Positions 3,452-12,513 of a DNA stretch of 43,938 nucleotides are shown here, in pieces. A model generated the notes under the pieces. The model had not been told where the DNA came from. It did not search any database and saw nothing but the letters and a program-made list of their open reading frames with translations. Within the stretch, counting starts at the first letter, position 1. The number at the start of each line of letters is the position of its first letter. The DNA is from Candidatus Pacearchaeota archaeon (GTDB lineage: Archaea > Nanobdellota > Nanobdellia > Pacearchaeales > GW2011-AR1): contig JBBDJP010000005.1 of NCBI GenBank assembly GCA_040879805.1, positions 1 through 43,938 on the forward strand, written 5' to 3'. Position numbers and translations under genes: made by a program.

Positions 3452-4078
3452 TTATTTCAAAACCTTCCCTGTTTCTTCATACCATAAATATAAGTCTAAT
3501 TCACCAAGAGGAATTCTTGTTTTTTCTGAAGTTTTTCTGAGAATATTCTCAACTTCCATATATTTTTTTGTTGTTAAAGTTTTTGGACGTTCAATTAGAT
3601 TTTGATTGACAAGTAAATCAAGAATATGAAAATCAATTATTGCAAGATTTTTGTAACCTATATTTCTAAGGAAATGTGAAGCTTCTTTCATTCCAATTCC
3701 TTTTATATTTTTAACAATCCATTCCCTCATTTTTATTTCATCTTTAAATTCCTGGAGAGTTTCTTTTATTGTGTCTTTTAACGGTTGGGCTTCTACAATA
3801 TATTTAGCTCTGGCATTTGGAAATCTGTGTCCAAGTTCAGCCAACTTTTTTGCAAGTTCTTTTTCAGATAAATGTAAAAATCCATCTCCAATTTCATTCT
3901 GAATTTTAATCCCACCGTGCGCAGAAAAGTTCGCCGTCATAAAACAAAAACAAAGTTCCTTGAAAATTTCATTTGAATTCTTTTTTCCAAGATCTTCAAA
4001 TTCCACCATTTTAGAATCAATCGTCTCTTTTACAGGAGAGTTTTTGTGTTTTTCAACTATTGCTATTACTTCTTTCAT
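3452..4078 (-). CDS. ogg: N-glycosylase/DNA lyase (8-oxoguanine glycosylase, archaeal Ogg type)
   Basis: ELCFCFMTAN, HRFPNARAKYI, HhH KGIGMKEASHFLRN, IIDFHI, LDLYLW. Confidence 0.93.
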   Translation of the reverse strand: MKEVIAIVEKHKNSPVKETIDSKMVEFEDLGKKNSNEIFKELCFCFMTANFSAHGGIKIQNEIGDGFLHLSEKELAKKLAELGHRFPNARAKYIVEAQPLKDTIKETLQEFKDEIKMREWIVKNIKGIGMKEASHFLRNIGYKNLAIIDFHILDLLVNQNLIERPKTLTTKKYMEVENILRKTSEKTRIPLGELDLYLWYEETGKVLK

Positions 4079-4704
4079 TTTATTTTCTTAATCTGTTTAA
4101 GTAATTCATCTTTCTTTTTCCTGCTTGTATAAGTCTTTCCAAATCTAACTAATGTTGAATTCACCCTATTCCAGTATTTTTTTGGAAGAATTTTCCTTAG
4201 ATCTTCTTCAATTTTATGTGGATTTTTGTTTTTTGTCCAATCAAGTTTTTGAGAGATGTATGAAACATGTGTATCCACCCCTATTCCCGATTCTCCAATT
4301 TCTGATAAAAAAACATTGGCAGTTTTTCTTCCGACTCCATCTAATTTTATTAATTCATTAATATTTTTAGGTACTTTTGAATTATAATTTTTAACAAGAG
4401 ATTTGGCACAAGATATTATGTTTTTAGATTTATTTTTATAGAAATTTATTGGTTTAATGATTTTTTTTACCTCACTTAGTTTCGCTTTTGATAATTTCTT
4501 TGCTGAAGGATATTCCTTAAAGAGTTTTGTAGAAATAGGGATTGTTACTTCGTCTCTTGTTCTTGCAGAGAGAATCGTTGATATCAGAATTTTAAATGGG
4601 CTATCCCACTTCTCTGCGGCAAGTCTCAATTCACCAGAATTTTTTCCTAATTTCTTTAATTCTCTCATTTGCTTAAGAATAGTTTTTCTTTGTATACTCA
4701 TCAA
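4075..4704 (-). CDS. nth: Endonuclease III lacking the C-terminal Fe-S motif
   Basis: LISTILSARTRD, HhH LDGVGRKTANV, VDTHV; no CxxxxxxCxxCxxxxxC motif. Confidence 0.88.
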   Translation of the reverse strand: MMSIQRKTILKQMRELKKLGKNSGELRLAAEKWDSPFKILISTILSARTRDEVTIPISTKLFKEYPSAKKLSKAKLSEVKKIIKPINFYKNKSKNIISCAKSLVKNYNSKVPKNINELIKLDGVGRKTANVFLSEIGESGIGVDTHVSYISQKLDWTKNKNPHKIEEDLRKILPKKYWNRVNSTLVRFGKTYTSRKKKDELLKQIKKIK

Positions 4705-5168: not shown

Positions 5169-6050
5169 ATGAATATTGGAAAAATAAAATCTGATAAGAC
5201 CATTAAAGAATTACTTGAGTTTGGAATAATAAATATTGATAAGCCTTCAGGACCAACATCATTTAATGTTTCTGATTTTGTTAGGAGAAAACTAGATTTG
5301 AGAAAAACTTCACACTTTGGGACATTGGATCCAAAAGTTACCGGAGTTTTACCAATAGCATTAAACAGGGCGTGCAAACTTACAGGATTTTTTTTAGGTG
5401 AAGATAAAGAATATGTTGGGGTAATGAGTGTTCATGAAAAAATTGATAAAAAGACTATTGAAAAAATTATTAAAGAAAACTTTATGGGAAAAATAACTCA
5501 ACTTCCACCTGTAAAATCAAGAGTTAAAAGGCAGGAAAGAGTTAGAGAAATAAAATCTTTTAAAATTTTAGAACAAGAAGATAAAAATTTTCTTTTTAAA
5601 GTTGAGTGTGAAGGTGGGACTTACATAAGAAAACTTGTACATGATTTGGGTGAAGAATTGGGAACTGGTGCACACATGTTGGAACTTCGAAGAATAAGGG
5701 CAGGGATCTTTAAAGAAGATGGAAAAAAATATCCTTCTGTGAATCTTTATGATTTTGAAAAAGCTGTTGAAGAATATGAAAAAGGGAATGAAAAACTCTT
5801 AAGAAAAATTGTAATTCCTGGTGAGATTGTCTCTGAATTATATCCTGCCGTTCAGGTTAAAAAAAATTATATGGGTAAATTGTTCAATGGAAGCCCTTTA
5901 CATAAAAAATATATTAAAGACAAAAAACTAGATTTGGAAGGAGAGAAGTTTTGTGCTTTCTCAAATAACAAATTTATTGGAGTTTATAGAAGAACATTGG
6001 AAAAAGAAATTCTTGGGAGACCTTTATTTGTCTTGCAGCCTTTGGTTTAA
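5169..6050 (+). CDS. truB: RNA-guided/tRNA pseudouridine synthase Cbf5 (TruB family)
   Basis: IDKPSGPTS, catalytic HFGTLDPKVTGVL, CEGGTYIRKL, LRRIRAG. Confidence 0.95.
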   Translation: MNIGKIKSDKTIKELLEFGIINIDKPSGPTSFNVSDFVRRKLDLRKTSHFGTLDPKVTGVLPIALNRACKLTGFFLGEDKEYVGVMSVHEKIDKKTIEKIIKENFMGKITQLPPVKSRVKRQERVREIKSFKILEQEDKNFLFKVECEGGTYIRKLVHDLGEELGTGAHMLELRRIRAGIFKEDGKKYPSVNLYDFEKAVEEYEKGNEKLLRKIVIPGEIVSELYPAVQVKKNYMGKLFNGSPLHKKYIKDKKLDLEGEKFCAFSNNKFIGVYRRTLEKEILGRPLFVLQPLV

Positions 6051-6132
6051 CATCGCGATTAAGAGAAGTTTGGCGTAGGCGAATTTTGGGAAATTTTCTG
6101 CAAGAAAATTTACCTCTTAATCGCTGTTATAC
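6045..6132 (-). other. Integron attC-like recombination site (88 bp)
   Basis: Minus strand reads GTATAAC-a-gcgattaagag...ctcttaatcgc-gat-GTTAAAC: R''/R' boxes, a perfect 11-bp inverted repeat (6055-6065/6114-6124), an asymmetric spacer and an internal hairpin (6091-6111). Confidence 0.7.
6046..6069. repeat. 24-bp direct repeat, copy 1 (tttaacatcgcgattaagagaagt)
   Basis: Exact match to 9977-10000; contains the truB stop codon. Confidence 0.97.
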
Positions 6133-6309
6133 GCGTCTGCTAAGACCGAACCATAGTCTGCAAGACGGTTTTTTGCGAAGCAAAAAAAATGGCGAAGAGT
6201 TAAATTTTCACGATAATAAATTTCGACCGTAGGAAGTGTATGTCCGAAGGACGAGGAGGCTTTTTTGTTTCTTTTTCTAAAGATATGCTTTAGATCAAAC
6301 CGAAACATA

Positions 6310-6334
6310 TTTAAATATCGGCATATAACGATAT
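6310..6334 (+). promoter_or_regulatory. ars promoter TATA box with ArsR-type operator
   Basis: TTTAAATA (6310-6317) overlapped by the inverted repeat ATATCG-N8-CGATAT (6315-6334), just upstream of the arsR ATG. Confidence 0.65.
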
Positions 6335-6337
6335 ATT

Positions 6338-6622
6338 ATGATTGATAAAAATATAAAATTATTATATGCTCTTAGTAATGAAACAAGAATAGAAATTTTG
6401 CAATATTTGCTTAATAGAGAATTATGTGCTTGTTCTATTCATCCTTTTATTGGAAAAGCTCAATCAACCATTTCGGGGCATTTAAAAATATTGGAAGAAG
6501 CAGGAATAATTGAATCCAAAAGGGTAGGGGTAAACATTTGGTACAGAATTAAAAGTAAAAAAGCTATACAGATTATGAAGATTCTAGGTATTCAAAAAAT
6601 TGAAAATAAAATAAATTGCTGA
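6338..6622 (+). CDS. arsR: ArsR/SmtB arsenic-responsive repressor
   Basis: ALSNETRIEIL, ELCAC metal site, QSTISGHLKIL HTH. Confidence 0.93.
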   Translation: MIDKNIKLLYALSNETRIEILQYLLNRELCACSIHPFIGKAQSTISGHLKILEEAGIIESKRVGVNIWYRIKSKKAIQIMKILGIQKIENKINC

Positions 6623-6631
6623 GGCATTAAT

Positions 6632-6955
6632 ATGGTAAAAGATAATTTAACTATTTATGAAGGAGTAATGTGTTGTCAAACGGGTTTATGTGGACCAGAA
6701 CCAGATAAAACCCTTATAGATCTAAATGAAACACTAAAAAAATTACAAAATGAATTTAGTGATTTAGAAATAAATAGGGCAAATATAACACACAACCTAA
6801 ATATGTTTTTAGAGAATAAAGAGATCTTCCAATTAGTTAAGGAAAAGGGGCAAGAAATTCTTCCAATCACTACTATTAATGGAAAAATTATTGCCAATCA
6901 AAAATATCTGAAATATGATGAAGTAAAAGAAATAATTAAGGAGACAAAAAAATGA
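6632..6955 (+). CDS. arsD: Arsenite metallochaperone ArsD
   Basis: IYEGVMCCQTGLCGP, LPITTING. Confidence 0.93.
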   Translation: MVKDNLTIYEGVMCCQTGLCGPEPDKTLIDLNETLKKLQNEFSDLEINRANITHNLNMFLENKEIFQLVKEKGQEILPITTINGKIIANQKYLKYDEVKEIIKETKK

Positions 6956-8796
6956 AAAATTTAAGCAAATTCATAAAACCTATTGCAGAAAACGAGACAA
7001 AATTCATATTCTTTAGTGGTAAAGGAGGGGTTGGAAAAAGTACAATGAGTTGTTCAACTGCTGTCTGGCTTGCTAATCAAGGATATAAAACTTTACTTGT
7101 GACAACTGATCCTGCACCAAATTTATCAGACATATTCGATCAAGAAATAGGCCATAGAGTGACTAAAATAAACAATATTCAAAATCTATCTGCTATAGAA
7201 ATCGACCCTGATGTTGCATCACAGGAATATAGGGAAAAAATAATGGCTCCGATGAGAAAATTATTGGATGAGAAAGATATCAAAATAGTAAACGAACAAT
7301 TGAACAGCCCTTGCGTTGAAGAAATTGCGGCTTTTGACAAATTTATAGAATTTATGGATAAACCAGACTATGATGTTGTGATATTTGATACAGCGCCAAC
7401 AGGACATACAATAAGATTATTAGAGCTTCCCTCTGGATGGAATGAATCGTTAAAAGGAGATTCTGCAACATGTATTGGTCCTAGTGCTTCACTACAAGAT
7501 GCAAAAGCGAGATATGAAAAAGCGATTTCGTATTTGCAAGATGAACAAAAAACCTCTTTTGTTTTTGTGTTAAAGCCAGAAAATTCTAGTGTGCTTGAAG
7601 TTGAAAGAAGTTCAGGAGAACTTGAAAAACTAGGTATAAATACCACTTTTTCTATAGTGAATGGGTTACTTCCTAATAATGCAATTACAGATGAATTCCT
7701 AAAGAAAAGAAAAGAGCAAGAGAACGCAGTCATTGAAAATATCAAAAATTCTTTTAAGACTCCTTTATTTTTTTATCCTCTTAAAGATTCTGAAGTTTCT
7801 GGATTAAAGTTGTTGGAATCAGTTGGAGATTTTTTGTATGAAGGAAAAGAAGAAGAAAATAGCGAGCCAAAACAGATTACTAAAGAAACAGAAGTTACGT
7901 TCGACAATAATCTTAAGGAAATACTCCCTGTACTTACTCCGTTAAGAGATAAAAGATATGTCTTTTTTACAGGCAAAGGAGGGGTTGGAAAAAGTACTGT
8001 TGCGTGTACAACTTCAGTATATATGGCTGAAAAAGGGTTAAAAACATTAATTGTAACGACTGATCCTGCATCTCATCTGCACGACATTTTTGGACAAGAA
8101 ATAAATCACGAACCAACTAAGATTAGAGCTGTGGATAATTTATTTGCTGCAAGAATTGATCAGAAGAAAGCATTAGAGGAATACAAAAAAAGAATTTTAG
8201 AAGCAGTAAAAGACAAGGACGAAGAAACAAAGAAATCTGTTGAGGAAGATTTAAACTCTCCGTGTGCTGAAGAAATGGCTGCGTTTGAGAAATTTATGAG
8301 TTATTTTGAAATCGAAGGATACGAAGTAATTATTTTTGATACAGCGCCAACAGGACACACTCTAAGGCTTTTGGAGCTTCCTTCTGATTGGAAAGGGTTT
8401 GTTGATTTAGGAACATTAACAAAGAATACATCTGGAGAGACTATGAGCAAGTACTCTAATGTTATAGATACTATGCGAAATAAGGACAAAAGTTCATTCA
8501 TTTTTGTGATGTATCCAGAGTACACGCCGATAATTGAAGCATGGCGTGCATCTGAGGACTTGAAAAAACAAGTCGGAATTGAAACAGCAGCTGTCGCAGT
8601 AAACAATCTGATTTCTCCACATTGGGGGCAAAACTCTTTCTTTAATAATCGAAGAATCCAACAATCCAAATACTTACAACTCATAAAAGAGAAGTTTGAA
8701 ATCCCCTCAATTTTTATTTCTTTACAAGAGGATGAACCAAAAGGAATTGATAATCTAAAGAGGCTTGGAAAAAATATTTTCGGAGGGCAAAAATGA
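6952..8796 (+). CDS. arsA: Arsenite-activated ATPase ArsA (two nucleotide-binding domains)
   Basis: Two GKGGVGKS and two DTAPTGHT motifs; metal-binding Cys in SPCVEE, ATCIGP and SPCAEE. Confidence 0.96.
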   Translation: MKNLSKFIKPIAENETKFIFFSGKGGVGKSTMSCSTAVWLANQGYKTLLVTTDPAPNLSDIFDQEIGHRVTKINNIQNLSAIEIDPDVASQEYREKIMAPMRKLLDEKDIKIVNEQLNSPCVEEIAAFDKFIEFMDKPDYDVVIFDTAPTGHTIRLLELPSGWNESLKGDSATCIGPSASLQDAKARYEKAISYLQDEQKTSFVFVLKPENSSVLEVERSSGELEKLGINTTFSIVNGLLPNNAITDEFLKKRKEQENAVIENIKNSFKTPLFFYPLKDSEVSGLKLLESVGDFLYEGKEEENSEPKQITKETEVTFDNNLKEILPVLTPLRDKRYVFFTGKGGVGKSTVACTTSVYMAEKGLKTLIVTTDPASHLHDIFGQEINHEPTKIRAVDNLFAARIDQKKALEEYKKRILEAVKDKDEETKKSVEEDLNSPCAEEMAAFEKFMSYFEIEGYEVIIFDTAPTGHTLRLLELPSDWKGFVDLGTLTKNTSGETMSKYSNVIDTMRNKDKSSFIFVMYPEYTPIIEAWRASEDLKKQVGIETAAVAVNNLISPHWGQNSFFNNRRIQQSKYLQLIKEKFEIPSIFISLQEDEPKGIDNLKRLGKNIFGGQK

Positions 8797-9131
8797 GAGA
8801 AAAAACACCTATGGAATTACTTAAGGAGATAGCTCCAGAATTTGCTCAAAGCCAGATGAATGATAAAAAAACTCTTTTTGATGATGAGAAATATCAACAA
8901 ATACCTAAAAAGTATAAATTTCTTATAGGTCTTGCAACAGCTGCAGCATTAGGTTCTGACATGTGTACAAGAATGTGGACAAAACAGGCAATTGCTTCAG
9001 GTGCAAACAAATCAGAAGTGACAGAAGCAATGATGGTTGCAAGATTTTTAAAACAGGCAACAGTCAACGATACTATTGCAAGTTCCATTGAGAAGTTCAT
9101 TTTACAGGATGAAGGAGAAAAAAATGAATGA
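8793..9131 (+). CDS. Carboxymuconolactone decarboxylase/AhpD-like protein
   Basis: IPKKYKFLIGLA...C...A...GANKSEVTEA pattern; a single Cys rather than CxxC. Confidence 0.75.
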   Translation: MREKTPMELLKEIAPEFAQSQMNDKKTLFDDEKYQQIPKKYKFLIGLATAAALGSDMCTRMWTKQAIASGANKSEVTEAMMVARFLKQATVNDTIASSIEKFILQDEGEKNE

Positions 9132-9468
9132 AGAAATAAAAAATAAAACAAAAGAGTTTGCACAGGCAATTTTAGAAAGCGAAGAGTATAAAACATTTAT
9201 ATCTGTCTCAGATGATTTAAAAAAAAGTGAAGATTCAAATTTATTAAAAGAGTTCCAAAATAAACAAATGGAATTACGGCGGAAAGGATTTGATCCTTCG
9301 CTAATGGAAGAACTAAGAGAATTGCAAACAAAAATAAATAAGAGTGAAACAATACAACAATTTGCCAAAACTCAAAATGAATTGGTTGATTTATTAAAAA
9401 GAACAAATAACCTTATTAGCTTAAGAATAAATATGCCTTTTGTAAGTGCTATGAGAGGTGGTTGCTGA
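9124..9468 (+). CDS. YlbF-family helical protein ending in RGGC
   Basis: EFAQAILESEEYK N-terminus, coiled-coil body; start moved to ATG 9124. Confidence 0.7.
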   Translation: MNEEIKNKTKEFAQAILESEEYKTFISVSDDLKKSEDSNLLKEFQNKQMELRRKGFDPSLMEELRELQTKINKSETIQQFAKTQNELVDLLKRTNNLISLRINMPFVSAMRGGC

Positions 9469-9671
9469 TGAATGGAAAAAATCCTTCAAATCAACATGCA
9501 ATAATAAAAGCAAAAGAACTTGCTGAAGCAATCAAAAATAGTGAAGAATTTAAAGATGGCGATGTTGTTGCATTGCAAAGCGTTCTTACAAAATGTAATA
9601 GAATAATTAGTGAGAGTATCAAAATTAATTATGAAGCAGTTTGCCAACCAAGAGGAGGCTGTTGTGGTTAA
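9468..9671 (+). CDS. Short YlbF-like protein ending in RGGCCG
   Basis: AKELAEAIKNSEEF resembles the N-terminus of the preceding protein; TGATG overlap coupling. Confidence 0.65.
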   Translation: MNGKNPSNQHAIIKAKELAEAIKNSEEFKDGDVVALQSVLTKCNRIISESIKINYEAVCQPRGGCCG

Positions 9672-9675
9672 AAAA

Positions 9676-9873
9676 ATGGGTTTATTTTCATTATTCAAGG
9701 AAAAAGAAAAAGTGTTGCAGTGCGATTGGTGTAAAAACGAAATAGATACTCCTTCCTATACCAAAGTTTTTGGTAATACTAAATATGGATTTTGTTCTGA
9801 TTCCTGTAAGCAAAATTTTAGAAGCTGGTTTAAAAAAATGCGTTCTTGCGGGCCAAGTTGTGCTTGTCATTGA
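9676..9873 (+). CDS. Small TRASH/YHS-like metal-binding protein with CGPSCACH tail
   Basis: CDWC...YGFCSDSC; start moved to ATG 9676. Confidence 0.7.
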   Translation: MGLFSLFKEKEKVLQCDWCKNEIDTPSYTKVFGNTKYGFCSDSCKQNFRSWFKKMRSCGPSCACH

Positions 9874-9976
9874 ATATTAATATTTCTCATAAAGTGAGAC
9901 AATATGTGCGTAGCACCTGGACTCCCCCTCTTTTGCTTCTTTTTCTAAAAGAAGAGAGAACTTAAACACAATTGAA

Positions 9977-10000
9977 TTTAACATCGCGATTAAGAGAAGT
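9977..10000. repeat. 24-bp direct repeat, copy 2 (attC right half only)
   Basis: Identical to 6046-6069; no complementary arm found in 10000-10115. Confidence 0.97.
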
Positions 10001-10115
10001 GACAATCCCTCCAAAAATTTTTCGGGCATTCAGATATAAAAACCACGCAAATCTACACACAAATTTCACAAGCATCAATCAAAAATGTTAAAAGCCCTTT
10101 AGACAATATTAATTT

Positions 10116-11025: not shown

Positions 11026-12513
11026 ATGGTAGAGAAATTCTTTTGGGCAGATAAAATTGCAGATGAAATAATTAAGTTAAATGATAAAAAAGAATATGTT
11101 TGTGCTTCTGGGATAACTCCTTCTGGAACAATTCATATAGGAAATTTCAGAGAAGTAATCACTACTGACTTAGTCGTTAAAGCTCTTCAAGATAAAGGAA
11201 AAAAGGTTAGATTTATTTATTCTTGGGATGATTATGATCGGTTTAGAAAAGTTCCTACGAATGTTCCTAAGAATTATGAAAAATATATTGGATTTCCTTT
11301 AAGTAAATTTCCTCATCCTTCAAACAAAAAAATTAGTTATGCTGAATACTTTGAAAAAGAATTTGAGAGTTCTCTTGAAAAATTGGGAATAAAGCCCGAA
11401 TTTATAAGACAGAGCATTATGAATGAAAATTGTAAATATTCTTCTCTTATAAAAACATCTCTAGATAAAAAGGATGAAATAAAAAAGATCCTTAATAAAT
11501 ATAGGAAAGAACCTTTAGGTAAGGATTGGTATCCTTTTGTTGTTTATTGTGAAAAATGTAATAAAGATTCTACAAAAATAATTTATGCAGAAGATTACAA
11601 TATTGAATATTCTTGTAAGTGTGGTTTTCAAAATAAAATAGATTACCGAAAAAAGGGCATAGTTAAACTTAAATGGAGGGTTGACTGGCCTGGAAGATGG
11701 AAATATGAGAATGTTGACTTTGAACCTGGTGGAATTGATCATAGTGCTTCAGGAGGTTCTTTTGACACTTCGAAAATTATTGTTAAGAAAATTTTTGATC
11801 ATAAAGCTCCAAAATACACTTTTTATGAATGGGTCAGAATAAAAGGGGGAAAAGAATTCTCTAGCTCTTCAGGAAATGCAGTTTCTCTAGCCGAAGTTGA
11901 AAGTGTTTATGAGCCAGAAGTCTTGAGATATATTTTTGTTGGAACAAGACCTAATAAAGGTTTTCAGATAAGTTTTGATAATGATATAATTAAGATCTAT
12001 GAAGAATATGATGATCTTGAACATAGGTATTTTGAAAAACTTGTTGATCCACAAGAAAAAAGAATCTATGAATTATCTCAAATAAAGATACCAAAAAAGA
12101 AACCTAATAGAGAAAATTTCAGACACTTAATAACTCTTGTGCAAACAGGTAAAGAAAATGAACTTAATTCTCTATCAAAAAAAAGAGCTGAAAAAGTTAA
12201 AAATTGGCTGAAGAATTATGCGGGAGAAGATATGGGATTTGAGGTTCAAGATGAAATAAAAATAGATTTAACAGATCCTCAAAAAGAAGCACTTATATTG
12301 TTAAAAGAATCTTTGGCAACAAAAGAGTTTAATGAAGAAGAATTGTTTAATGAATTCTATAATATTTGTGAGAATATTGGAATCAAACATAAGGATTTCT
12401 TTCAGACTGCATATAGAGTCATTATTAATAAAACAAAAGGTCCAAGACTTGCAGGATTGATTCTTGTAATTGGTCAAAAAAATGTCGTGGATCTTTTAGA
12501 AAAGATAAAATAA
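11026..12513 (+). CDS. lysS: Lysyl-tRNA synthetase, class I
   Basis: FWAD, GITPSGTIHIGNFRE, KLKWRVDWP, EPGGIDH, GPRL; start moved to ATG 11026. Confidence 0.96.
   Translation: MVEKFFWADKIADEIIKLNDKKEYVCASGITPSGTIHIGNFREVITTDLVVKALQDKGKKVRFIYSWDDYDRFRKVPTNVPKNYEKYIGFPLSKFPHPSNKKISYAEYFEKEFESSLEKLGIKPEFIRQSIMNENCKYSSLIKTSLDKKDEIKKILNKYRKEPLGKDWYPFVVYCEKCNKDSTKIIYAEDYNIEYSCKCGFQNKIDYRKKGIVKLKWRVDWPGRWKYENVDFEPGGIDHSASGGSFDTSKIIVKKIFDHKAPKYTFYEWVRIKGGKEFSSSSGNAVSLAEVESVYEPEVLRYIFVGTRPNKGFQISFDNDIIKIYEEYDDLEHRYFEKLVDPQEKRIYELSQIKIPKKKPNRENFRHLITLVQTGKENELNSLSKKRAEKVKNWLKNYAGEDMGFEVQDEIKIDLTDPQKEALILLKESLATKEFNEEELFNEFYNICENIGIKHKDFFQTAYRVIINKTKGPRLAGLILVIGQKNVVDLLEKIK

Follow-up and report, generated by a model that had tools for sequence, protein, structure and literature searches.

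ArsA is defined in textbooks as the motor of an ArsB or Acr3 arsenite pump, and the question raised by the locus described here is where As(III) goes when arsD and arsA stand in an operon that contains no pump gene. The locus lies on a 43,938-nucleotide (nt) stretch (positions 1 to 43,938 of JBBDJP010000005.1; called the window below, meaning the whole stretch analyzed) from contig 5 of a “Candidatus Pacearchaeota” assembly (GCA_040879805.1; 406 kb, six contigs, 73% complete, 31% G+C). Seven open reading frames (ORFs) on the + strand, within positions 6338-9873 of the window, form a cassette in the order arsR-arsD-arsA-CMD-hcsL-hcsS-TRASH (Table 1). The cassette appears to be the DPANN version of an operon, arsD-arsA-hcsL-hcsS, with a wide distribution among haloarchaea and further occurrences in methanogens and anaerobic bacteria. 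The reading preferred here, to which a probability of about 0.5 was assigned, is that of a horizontally acquired, self-regulated arsenite/antimonite cassette in which the small Cys-tailed proteins HcsL and HcsS would form a thiolate acceptor of As(III)/Sb(III) working with ArsD-ArsA.

Gene content and predicted products of the cassette

All seven ORFs were recognized by family scans, in agreement with a first-pass annotation made from the sequence alone, which had named arsR-arsD-arsA followed by a CMD-like gene, two YlbF-like genes, and a TRASH gene. The predicted ArsR (NF033788, 74.1 bits; cut-off, 55) carried Cys30 and Cys32 in an ELCAC motif and a C-terminal Cys94, the third Cys of R773 being absent, and the predicted ArsD (NF033727, 101.5 bits; cut-off, 90) carried Cys14-Cys15-x4-Cys20, the CC-x4-C chaperone motif. 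ArsA (NF041417, ArsA_halo, 978.8 bits; cut-off, 800) was matched by PF02374 in both halves, each of which contained GKGGVGKST and DTAPTGHT. Among its five cysteines (34, 121, 174, 352, and 438), Cys121, Cys174, and Cys438 aligned with Cys113, Cys172, and Cys422 of the R773 metalloid triad (alignment to PDB 1F48). The ars core looks fully functional: the residues by which sensing of As(III), its chaperoning, and ATP hydrolysis activated by it are defined are all kept in ArsR, ArsD, and ArsA.

The sequence from 6310 to 6334 is probably a promoter with an ArsR operator that gives rise to a leaderless transcript. Autoregulation of the cassette by ArsR is suggested because the palindrome in this region overlaps the TATA-like box and is also kept upstream of arsR in a related cassette (L002). 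ATG starts at 9124 (HcsL), 9468 (HcsS), and 9676 (TRASH) were judged likelier than the upstream TTG or GTG starts of the longest ORFs, and with these starts the junctions from arsD through the TRASH gene read ATGA, ATGA, ATGAATGA, TGATG, and a 4-nt spacer. Overlapping or only 4 nt apart, arsD, the TRASH gene, and the four genes between them are therefore translationally coupled; the tight coupling reported at first pass therefore holds for these genes, with three starts that differ from those of the longest ORFs. Compared with three related cassettes that were ~9% divergent in DNA, ratios of nonsynonymous to synonymous substitution rates (dN/dS) were 0.04 to 0.30 for all seven genes (one HcsS comparison gave 0.64, resting on eight changes), which indicates purifying selection on the whole set and argues that the small ORFs are real genes. 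As had been claimed, scans found no arsB, acr3, arsC, or arsM within the element, and no hydrophobic 19-mer occurred in the seven products (top Kyte-Doolittle mean, 1.12), so that the element encodes no recognizable membrane protein.

The predicted HcsL matched PF06133 (55.3 bits; cut-off, 23.9), and a profile of 13 HcsL-type sequences matched YheA, SP1372, YmcA/RicA, and RicF in PDB (E values of 6e-11 to 2e-7). An AlphaFold2 model of HcsL (predicted local distance difference test score [pLDDT], 88.6) contained five helices and a disordered tail at residues 103-114, and its best structural match was the RicA-RicF complex (6PRK_A; template modeling [TM] score, 0.76). An exhaustive profile search recovered 713 clusters (50% identity) at an E value of ≤1e-10, bacteria included, with the family spread over Halobacteria, methanogens, DPANN, Chloroflexota, Syntrophales, and Atribacterota. 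Cysteine was present near the C-terminal end in ~137 of the top 149 family representatives, as GGCC, GCCG, or a single terminal C, and ~15 of the same 149 were tandem fusions of two YlbF-like domains. The existence of these natural fusions argues that the two YlbF-like paralogues act as a heterodimer.

The window HcsS (P0318) was listed with PF26263 (DUF8067) in a precomputed Pfam table and was homologous, by profile cross-matches, to the C-terminal half of HcsL. It contains Cys43, Cys59, Cys65, and Cys66 and ends in CCG; Cys59 and Cys65 were invariant in 14 aligned sequences, and a C-x4-6-CC tail, the mirror of the CC-x4-C of ArsD, was found in 23 of 26 HcsS sequences. In bacterial pairs, one paralogue carries CC and the other a single terminal C, and in the window one Cys is on HcsL and three are in the HcsS tail. 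By analogy, the Hcs tails look like As(III) S3 sites. Haloarchaeal homologues have been named “halo-CC-star protein HcsS” by NCBI/UniRef and DUF8067 by Pfam, and both small proteins thus belong to already catalogued families without an assigned function and are not new ones. A literature search found no paper on halo-CC-star, HcsL, or HcsS and none linking YlbF with arsA.

The C termini RGGC, RGGCCG, and CGPSCACH, which the first-pass annotation had read from HcsL, HcsS, and the TRASH protein, were present in the translations. That annotation had counted four Cys-bearing accessory proteins; all four do contain cysteine, but the CMD-like protein (PF02627, 35.4 bits; cut-off, 23) has only Cys58 and no His, and the CxxC...H redox motif is not present. 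The 70- to 83-aa CMD-like proteins of four other arsA loci (L012, L015, L031, and L059) keep C-x-P-C-x-x-x-H. The CMD gene had a dN/dS of 0.06 to 0.10. Two observations hint that, in hosts with ArsM, methylation may draw on protein-bound As(III): ArsM occupies the CMD slot in a related locus (L001), and the window CMD protein weakly matched the AhpD domain of an ArsM-AhpD fusion family. The TRASH protein (PF24273, 31.5 bits; cut-off, 27) contained the motif C16-x2-C19-x20-C40-x3-C44 (expected, C-x2-C-x19-22-C-x3-C) and three further cysteines, Cys58, Cys62, and Cys64, at its C terminus; its gene had a dN/dS of 0.15 to 0.28 and was intact in L051 and L059 and truncated in L001.

Table 1. Features of the cassette and its boundaries in the window (feature, position, strand, description)
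Left copy of perfect 24-nt direct repeat TTTAACATCGCGATTAAGAGAAGT	6046..6069		Overlaps the cbf5 stop codon; left boundary of the insertion
TATA-like box TTTAAATA	6310-6317	+	Upstream of arsR; read from sequence
Inverted repeat ATATCG-N8-CGATAT	6315-6320 / 6329-6334	+	3 nt before the arsR ATG; overlaps the TATA-like box
arsR	6338..6622	+	Predicted ArsR/SmtB metalloregulator, 94 aa; family scan, Cys map
arsD	6632..6955	+	Predicted arsenite metallochaperone, 107 aa; NF033727 match
arsA	6952..8796	+	Predicted two-domain As(III)/Sb(III)-activated ATPase, “ArsA_halo” type, 614 aa
CMD/AhpD-fold gene	8793..9131	+	112 aa; one Cys (C58), degenerate redox motif
hcsL-like gene	9124..9468	+	114 aa; RicA/RicF-fold (YlbF family), Gly-rich tail ending RGGC
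hcsS-like gene (Pfam DUF8067)	9468..9671	+	67 aa; tail C59-x5-C65-C66-G
TRASH-domain gene	9676..9873	+	65 aa; tail C58-GPS-C62-A-C64-H
T-rich stretch CTCTTTTGCTTCTTTTTCTAAA	9928..9949	+	Terminator-like; 91% identical to 6260-6281
Right copy of 24-nt direct repeat	9977..10000		115 nt before trmY (10116)

Association of Hcs genes with ArsA and with arsenite pumps

In each of the 26 examined loci that had been selected via an Hcs gene, arsD-arsA was followed immediately by an HcsL-type gene, and six of six HcsL-centered look-ups (on DPANN-like and Chloroflexota-like contigs, with four distant Chloroflexota-type members among them) placed it just downstream of ArsR-ArsD-ArsA. HcsL scored over the cut-off in 47 of 251 sampled Halobacteria genomes, and the 20 haloarchaeal loci that were fetched all had the arrangement (ArsC-ArsR)<->ArsD-ArsA-HcsL-HcsS with overlapping genes. 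The co-occurrence of Cys-tailed YlbF-type genes with arsA and arsD, on which the first-pass proposal had leaned, was borne out by these look-ups and by the haloarchaeal loci. No conserved membrane (polytopic) protein was found within ±8 kb in the 20 haloarchaeal loci. Among the 47 HcsL-bearing haloarchaeal genomes, Acr3 was over the cut-off in 15, any Acr3-like match was present in 20, and ArsB was present in none; of the 27 that had neither Acr3 nor ArsB, 17 had an ArsP_1-family permease and 10 had none of the three.

An adjacent Acr3 was found in 3 of 15 Hcs-bearing arsA loci versus 16 of 20 Hcs-less ones (Fisher's exact test, P = 6e-4; loci not picked by pump status, some rows near-duplicates, phylogeny ignored). 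Mapped onto the ArsA tree, the Hcs label requires at least 6 to 7 gains or losses, and Hcs appears to behave as a module that moves with arsDA. These patterns fit the report that arsADRC of Halobacterium NRC-1 confers As(III)/Sb(III) resistance in which its arsB plays no role (review, PMC3600143), and they fit a survey in which many arsA operons were found in genomes without arsB (PMC2963123).

The textbook ars core was known, and the arsDA-hcsLS arrangement was known as database family names only. The DPANN lineage, the gene set with CMD and TRASH, and the clear case of transfer are new here. So, as far as the literature search shows, is the description of a large Cys-tailed YlbF-like family tied to ArsA and inversely tied to adjacent Acr3. 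The observations describe a widespread type of arsD-arsA operon in which two conserved Cys-tailed proteins replace the adjacent pump gene, an overlooked part of arsenic biology.

Searches with models of Acr3 (TIGR00832), ArsB (PF02040), and ArsP_1 (PF03773) gave no match elsewhere in the window's genome, at 73% completeness, nor in the second cassette-bearing Pacearchaeota genome (G002, 600 kb, which carries L002/L051). The lack of a pump that had been noted at first pass held to this extent. Acr3 was absent from all 121 genomes (120 genera) of the window's family. The genome has 31 polytopic ORFs, and the seven of the largest that were scanned all belonged to unrelated families (AI-2E transporter, signal-peptide peptidase, LPG synthase, CstA, M50 protease, prepilin peptidase, and SpoIIM). 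No ArsM-like gene was found in the genome.

Outside the window, a gene for a 132-aa low-molecular-weight phosphatase/ArsC-like protein with a CTGNSARS motif (contig C1, 20186-20584) scored 94 to 96 bits on models of thioredoxin-type arsenate reductases, under their cut-offs.

Genes related to thiol redox chemistry or thiol arms recurred near the module. They included a thioredoxin reductase-like gene after HcsS in L055-58, DGC and thioredoxin-like proteins, CxxC CMD-like proteins (L012, L015, L031, and L059), GcvH (L075), and a lipoate-protein ligase (L074). Their recurrence is consistent with thiol chemistry.

Several other neighborhoods were recorded. Bacterial arsA clusters contained a CoaC/HFCD-type flavoprotein (cysteine decarboxylase family) directly after the Cys-tailed YlbF-like pair (L004, 7825-8394; L007, 9281-9850; L020, 9078-9695; L045, 9053-9388; L075, 6736-7305; L076, 7338-7976), and an FmdB zinc-ribbon protein ending in GPGCC was located just after the flavoprotein (L075 and L076) or just before the YlbF pair (L004 and L020). 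RACo is the reductive activator of corrinoid proteins, and in three arsA clusters of the Chloroflexota type (L075, 4308-5918; L076, 4919-6478; L077, 5040-6566), the gene just ahead of the YlbF pair encoded a RACo-like ASKHA ATPase without a listed ferredoxin domain. Products of these clusters also included cysteine desulfurase, NifU, proteins with FeS domains, an enzyme of the radical SAM/SPASM type, and small methyltransferases. In arsA loci of Methanocellaceae (L027-29), an MtrA-like corrinoid protein took the place of the RACo-like ATPase. Such neighbors may point to corrinoid-dependent arsenic methylation.

About three quarters of the sampled Halobacteria carried a second YlbF-like paralogue, which ends in AGGCC plus two to three acidic residues (L098-L105). 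It was followed by a MinD/ParA-type deviant-Walker-A ATPase in five of eight loci (e.g., L098, 4927-5328 and 5431-6135), with a KaiC-like DUF7125 gene a little further downstream, likewise in five of eight. Such an arrangement may reflect a more ancient association of SIMIBI ATPases at large with Cys-tailed YlbF proteins.

Many loci of the ArsA_halo type encoded, right after ArsA, a second, weakly ArsD-like protein of ~106 to 121 aa with an FPCGP...CCGP motif (L012, 7918-8247; L004, 6439-6759; L014, 3760-4125). Other Cys-rich C termini in such loci were GCCQPM on an 80-aa protein, SSCCG on a DGC protein, and GCGDSCAC on IscA/HesB proteins, the last of which resembles the TRASH tail CGPSCACH of the window.

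Insertion and mobility of the cassette

The cassette is, on the evidence of gene order and repeats, a horizontal insertion of ~4 kb between cbf5 and trmY. The gap between these genes is 5 to 47 nt in same-genus genomes (L065, L067, L068, and L073) versus 4,065 nt here, and the 24-nt direct repeat that flanks the insert has only two copies in the whole genome. Together with 70 to 80 nt of its own flanks, the cassette recurs at ~91% DNA identity in three other contexts, namely, a second Pacearchaeota metagenome-assembled genome (L002/L051), a 50-kb unbinned contig on which it lies beside a restriction-modification system (L059/L060), and a contig labeled Thermoplasmata (L001). The flanks at 6258-6337 and 9874-9941 are common to L059, with the T-rich stretch at the end of the shared 3' flank. 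Of the 401 genomes that were sampled from the order, the window's own was the sole one with ArsA_halo over the cut-off. Horizontal acquisition is concluded because cbf5 and trmY are adjacent in relatives, the repeats flank the insert, the cassette is ~91% identical elsewhere, and it is rare in the order. The window is a case in which the genome of an ultra-small symbiont has received a resistance cassette, by a transfer that is both rare and recent.

No integrase or transposase was found inside the insert. An origin of the flanking repeats as a tRNA att site was ruled out, as Rfam and tRNA scans of the window were empty in the cassette flanks. In the ArsA tree, the window protein grouped with low-GC archaeal contigs, in a clade with Methanoperedens, Syntrophales, Atribacterota, and Actinomycetota. 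A haloarchaeal origin, which the family names would imply, was rejected since this position is outside the haloarchaeal clade. A more distant variant (L055-58) consisted of ArsR-ArsD-ArsA-HcsL-HcsS followed by the thioredoxin reductase-like gene.

The Thermoplasmata-labeled contig (L001, 2216-8751) contained a cassette of 30 to 34% GC, ArsD-ArsA-ArsM-HcsL-HcsS with a TRASH remnant, within DNA of 40 to 47% GC, beside a resident Usp-ArsR-Acr3 block, and it is either a case of cross-phylum transfer or an assembly/binning chimera. Its Acr3 lies 1.7 kb downstream of the cassette. That this Acr3 is a normal part of the cassette was rejected, because the GC profile puts it in the recipient DNA of 40 to 47% GC and not in the cassette of 30 to 34%; hence, in none of the contexts seen does the mobile unit itself include a pump.

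The site between cbf5 and trmY resembles a hot spot of insertion, with unrelated inserts of 700 to 900 nt in L069, L070, and L071. Two stretches of the window matched short noncoding elements shared with other loci: 53 nt between the right repeat and trmY (10033-10085) were 89% identical to a site upstream of cbf5 in a same-genus genome (L066, 865-917), and L059 contained a second site (11541-11586) with 89% identity to 6216-6259.

Proposed mechanism, alternatives, and comparison with known systems

HcsL and HcsS would form a RicA/RicF-like helical heterodimer, an arrangement proposed because tail cysteines of both RicA and RicF jointly ligate one metal center (PMC6751060) and because natural fusions of the two domains exist. 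The flexible Gly-rich tails would bring together four thiols (HcsL Cys114 and HcsS Cys59, Cys65, and Cys66) and so offer As(III)/Sb(III) an S3/S4 site, with trigonal S3 binding of the kind used by ArsD, ArsR, and ArsA and with direct exchange of metalloid between this site and ArsD-ArsA. Further thiols might come from the CMD-like and TRASH proteins, which might alternatively keep the tails reduced. Bound metalloid could then be buffered, passed to a further exit, or methylated where ArsM is present. Within the acceptor reading, terminal buffering is less likely than hand-over to a further component. The use of ATP suggests vectorial work; in favor of a sink, however, tens of binding sites per micromolar arsenic are all that a nano-sized cell requires. 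An As(III)-acceptor role of the Hcs tails, as suggested at first pass, is plausible. The first-pass annotation had also proposed that a soluble sink would suit a reduced symbiont. This rationale found no specific support: free-living haloarchaea (47 of 251 genomes), methanogens, Chloroflexota, and Syntrophales commonly have the module, and it is rare in the window's order (1 of 401 genomes).

Several points weigh against the acceptor reading. Metalloid binding, transfer, and a resistance role of the Hcs proteins are predictions from sequence, and the closest solved relatives, RicA and RicF, use their tail cysteines for a [4Fe-4S] cluster and not for a metalloid. The window HcsL scored 97.8 bits on NF041416 (halo-CC-star HcsL), under the equivalog cut-off of 140, and by the NCBI threshold it would be a divergent relative and not an equivalog; HcsS scored 35.9 bits on NF041415 (halo-CC-star HcsS), under its equivalog cut-off of 55. 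HcsL has Cys114 alone, in a tail ending GGC, where the family has CC. By established chemistry, a pure sink or buffer leaves the steady-state level of free As(OH)3 no lower. The contrast in adjacent Acr3 was computed without regard to phylogeny, and the cassette may simply boost the host pump where one exists, as beside the resident Usp-ArsR-Acr3 block of L001. The pump searches covered Acr3, ArsB, and ArsP_1 only, not MFS-type, ABC-type, or aquaporin exits, and the assembly, at 73% completeness, is without SufB, though genus relatives and G002 each have one; a co-acquired transporter could therefore lie elsewhere in the genome.

How far the module works alone divides two further readings, both of them tentative. 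ArsD-ArsA-HcsL-HcsS might be a self-sufficient, pump-free arsenite machine in which the shared thiolate tails would receive As(III)/Sb(III) from ArsA at the expense of ATP, and protein-bound arsenic, in a form that is tolerated, methylated, or disposed of, would take the place of the glutathione conjugates of other organisms. That possibility is held with considerable doubt. It is similarly doubtful that HcsL and HcsS are not the end point of the pathway but adaptors or regulators coupling ArsA to an unrecognized membrane exit, with resistance still due to efflux; the exit might be an uncharacterized transporter, a protein of the MFS, ABC, or aquaporin type, a gene in the unassembled 27%, or a host's resident pump. 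ATP hydrolysis would suit transport better than buffering, the assembly is demonstrably incomplete, the low-GC cassette of L001 adjoins a higher-GC resident ArsR-Acr3, and ArsP_1-family permeases occur in 17 of the 27 HcsL-bearing haloarchaea lacking Acr3 and ArsB, in some within a few kilobases of the operon. ArsA is known, moreover, only as an energizer of pumps (PMC2963123). Yet no conserved polytopic protein accompanies the operon within ±8 kb in the 20 haloarchaeal loci, Acr3 is missing from all 121 genomes of the family, and Acr3, ArsB, and ArsP_1 are all absent from two independent small genomes that bear the cassette and from ten HcsL-bearing haloarchaeal genomes; seven of the genome's largest membrane proteins belong to unrelated families.

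The remaining explanations are less probable. Improbable, given the intact As(III) sites of the universal partners ArsD and ArsA, is the reading in which the Cys tails serve, like those of RicA/RicF, as ligands of an Fe-S cluster and in which the pair is a redox or Fe-S-status partner of ArsA, a SIMIBI-class ATPase, sensing or repairing, for example, arsenite damage to Fe-S proteins and not carrying metalloid. The fold match to RicA/RicF, which share a [4Fe-4S] cluster through their tail cysteines, speaks for it, as do the bacterial versions that lie among cysteine desulfurase, NifU, FeS-domain, ferredoxin, and RACo-like genes and the widespread haloarchaeal GGCC-tailed paralogue that adjoins a MinD/Mrp-like ATPase. 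Vicinal CC pairs are poor ligands of single clusters, however, and a hallmark of the As(III) S3 sites of ArsD and ArsR, and genes for Fe-S assembly are missing from the minimal DPANN and haloarchaeal cassettes. The 406-kb assembly likewise showed neither cysteine desulfurase nor NifU nor a ferredoxin motif (CxxCxxCxxxC). Genome-wide avoidance of Fe-S proteins was considered as a further argument and found only weakly usable; because same-genus genomes and G002 have SufB, the missing Fe-S genes more likely reflect an assembly gap than avoidance. Quite remote is the idea of a passenger, a newly arrived “ArsDA booster” that depends on a resident pump, is useless in Pacearchaeota, and will decay. 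It would account for the single occurrence among 401 genomes, flanking repeats typical of recent insertion, the truncated TRASH gene in L001, and the lack of an available pump; against it stand seven intact ORFs with dN/dS of 0.04 to 0.3 relative to ~9% divergent copies in three other contexts, the conserved operator palindrome, and the many complete-size haloarchaeal genomes that also keep the operon without a pump. Very unlikely indeed is posttranslational modification of the C-terminal cysteines, for example, decarboxylation of the last Cys by the CoaC/HFCD-type flavoprotein to a cysteamine or enethiol arm, which would make the proteins swinging-arm carriers of a cargo that is perhaps not arsenic. 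The flavoprotein (189 to 212 aa) does follow the YlbF pair directly in the six bacterial loci listed above, one paralogue always ends exactly in Cys, and GcvH and lipoate ligase occur in the same clusters, but it scores as an ordinary CoaC and is missing from the window, the genome, and the 20 haloarchaeal loci, and HcsS here ends in CCG and not in Cys.

On the subject of Fe-S proteins, an endonuclease III homologue in the window (4075-4704, - strand) had no Cys in its C-terminal region. Nth normally holds a [4Fe-4S] cluster in that region.

The acceptor reading can be set beside several characterized systems. With E. coli R773 ArsRDAB and the ArsA-Acr3 systems, the cassette shares the order ArsR/ArsD/ArsA, the gene coupling, and the motifs (CC-x4-C, the Cys triad, and DTAPTGHT twice). 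It differs in that ArsB and Acr3 are absent from the element and the genome (Acr3 in 0 of 121 genomes of the family) and in its four extra soluble Cys-bearing proteins after ArsA.

Bacillus subtilis RicA (YmcA)/RicF (YlbF) resembles the Hcs pair in fold (6PRK, TM 0.76; profile E value of 1e-7), in being paired paralogues, and in having disordered C-terminal tails with cysteines, which in Ric jointly bind a metal center (PMC6751060). The Ric tails, however, bind [4Fe-4S] with RicT and act in RNA processing, whereas the partner here is ArsD-ArsA and the window tails are Gly-rich with vicinal CC. In ArsD (Cys12/13/18) and in ArsR repressors, an As(III) S3 site consists of a vicinal Cys pair and a third Cys. 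The C-x4-6-CC of HcsS has the same arrangement, as do the three thiols of the bacterial pairs (CC plus C); the putative Hcs site, unlike those of ArsD and ArsR, would be on the flexible tail of a helical bundle and possibly across two chains. Metallothionein and phytochelatin, to which the sink idea of the first-pass annotation comes close, are likewise soluble thiol-rich acceptors for soft metal(loid)s, but Hcs has only 3 to 5 thiols per heterodimer, always accompanies an ATPase and a chaperone, and has no storage compartment.

The best family matches were NCBIfam NF041416/NF041415 and Pfam PF26263, which the window proteins resemble in position after ArsA and in tail logic; the window scores lie under both NCBIfam cut-offs, and the family is far wider than “halo” implies. 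A further system for comparison is the pNRC100 arsADRC cluster of Halobacterium NRC-1, with As(III)/Sb(III) resistance without an ArsB role (PMC3600143) and an ATPase of the same ArsA_halo type. The 20 sampled haloarchaeal loci have an NRC-1-like layout, (ArsC-ArsR)<->ArsD-ArsA, followed by HcsL-HcsS. In contrast to the haloarchaeal cluster, the window ArsA is outside the haloarchaeal clade, ArsR is codirectional, ArsC is absent, CMD and TRASH genes are added, and HcsL ends in C rather than CC, with HcsS ending in CCG. If the module were a self-sufficient machine, it would solve a puzzle that has stood for 20 years, namely, how arsADRC of Halobacterium gives resistance without a pump, and would point to an older partnership of Cys-tailed YlbF-like proteins with SIMIBI ATPases, the GGCC paralogue adjoining a MinD-like ATPase in most haloarchaea. 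With the Hcs pair there is now a concrete candidate for the component that haloarchaeal arsenite resistance has been missing.

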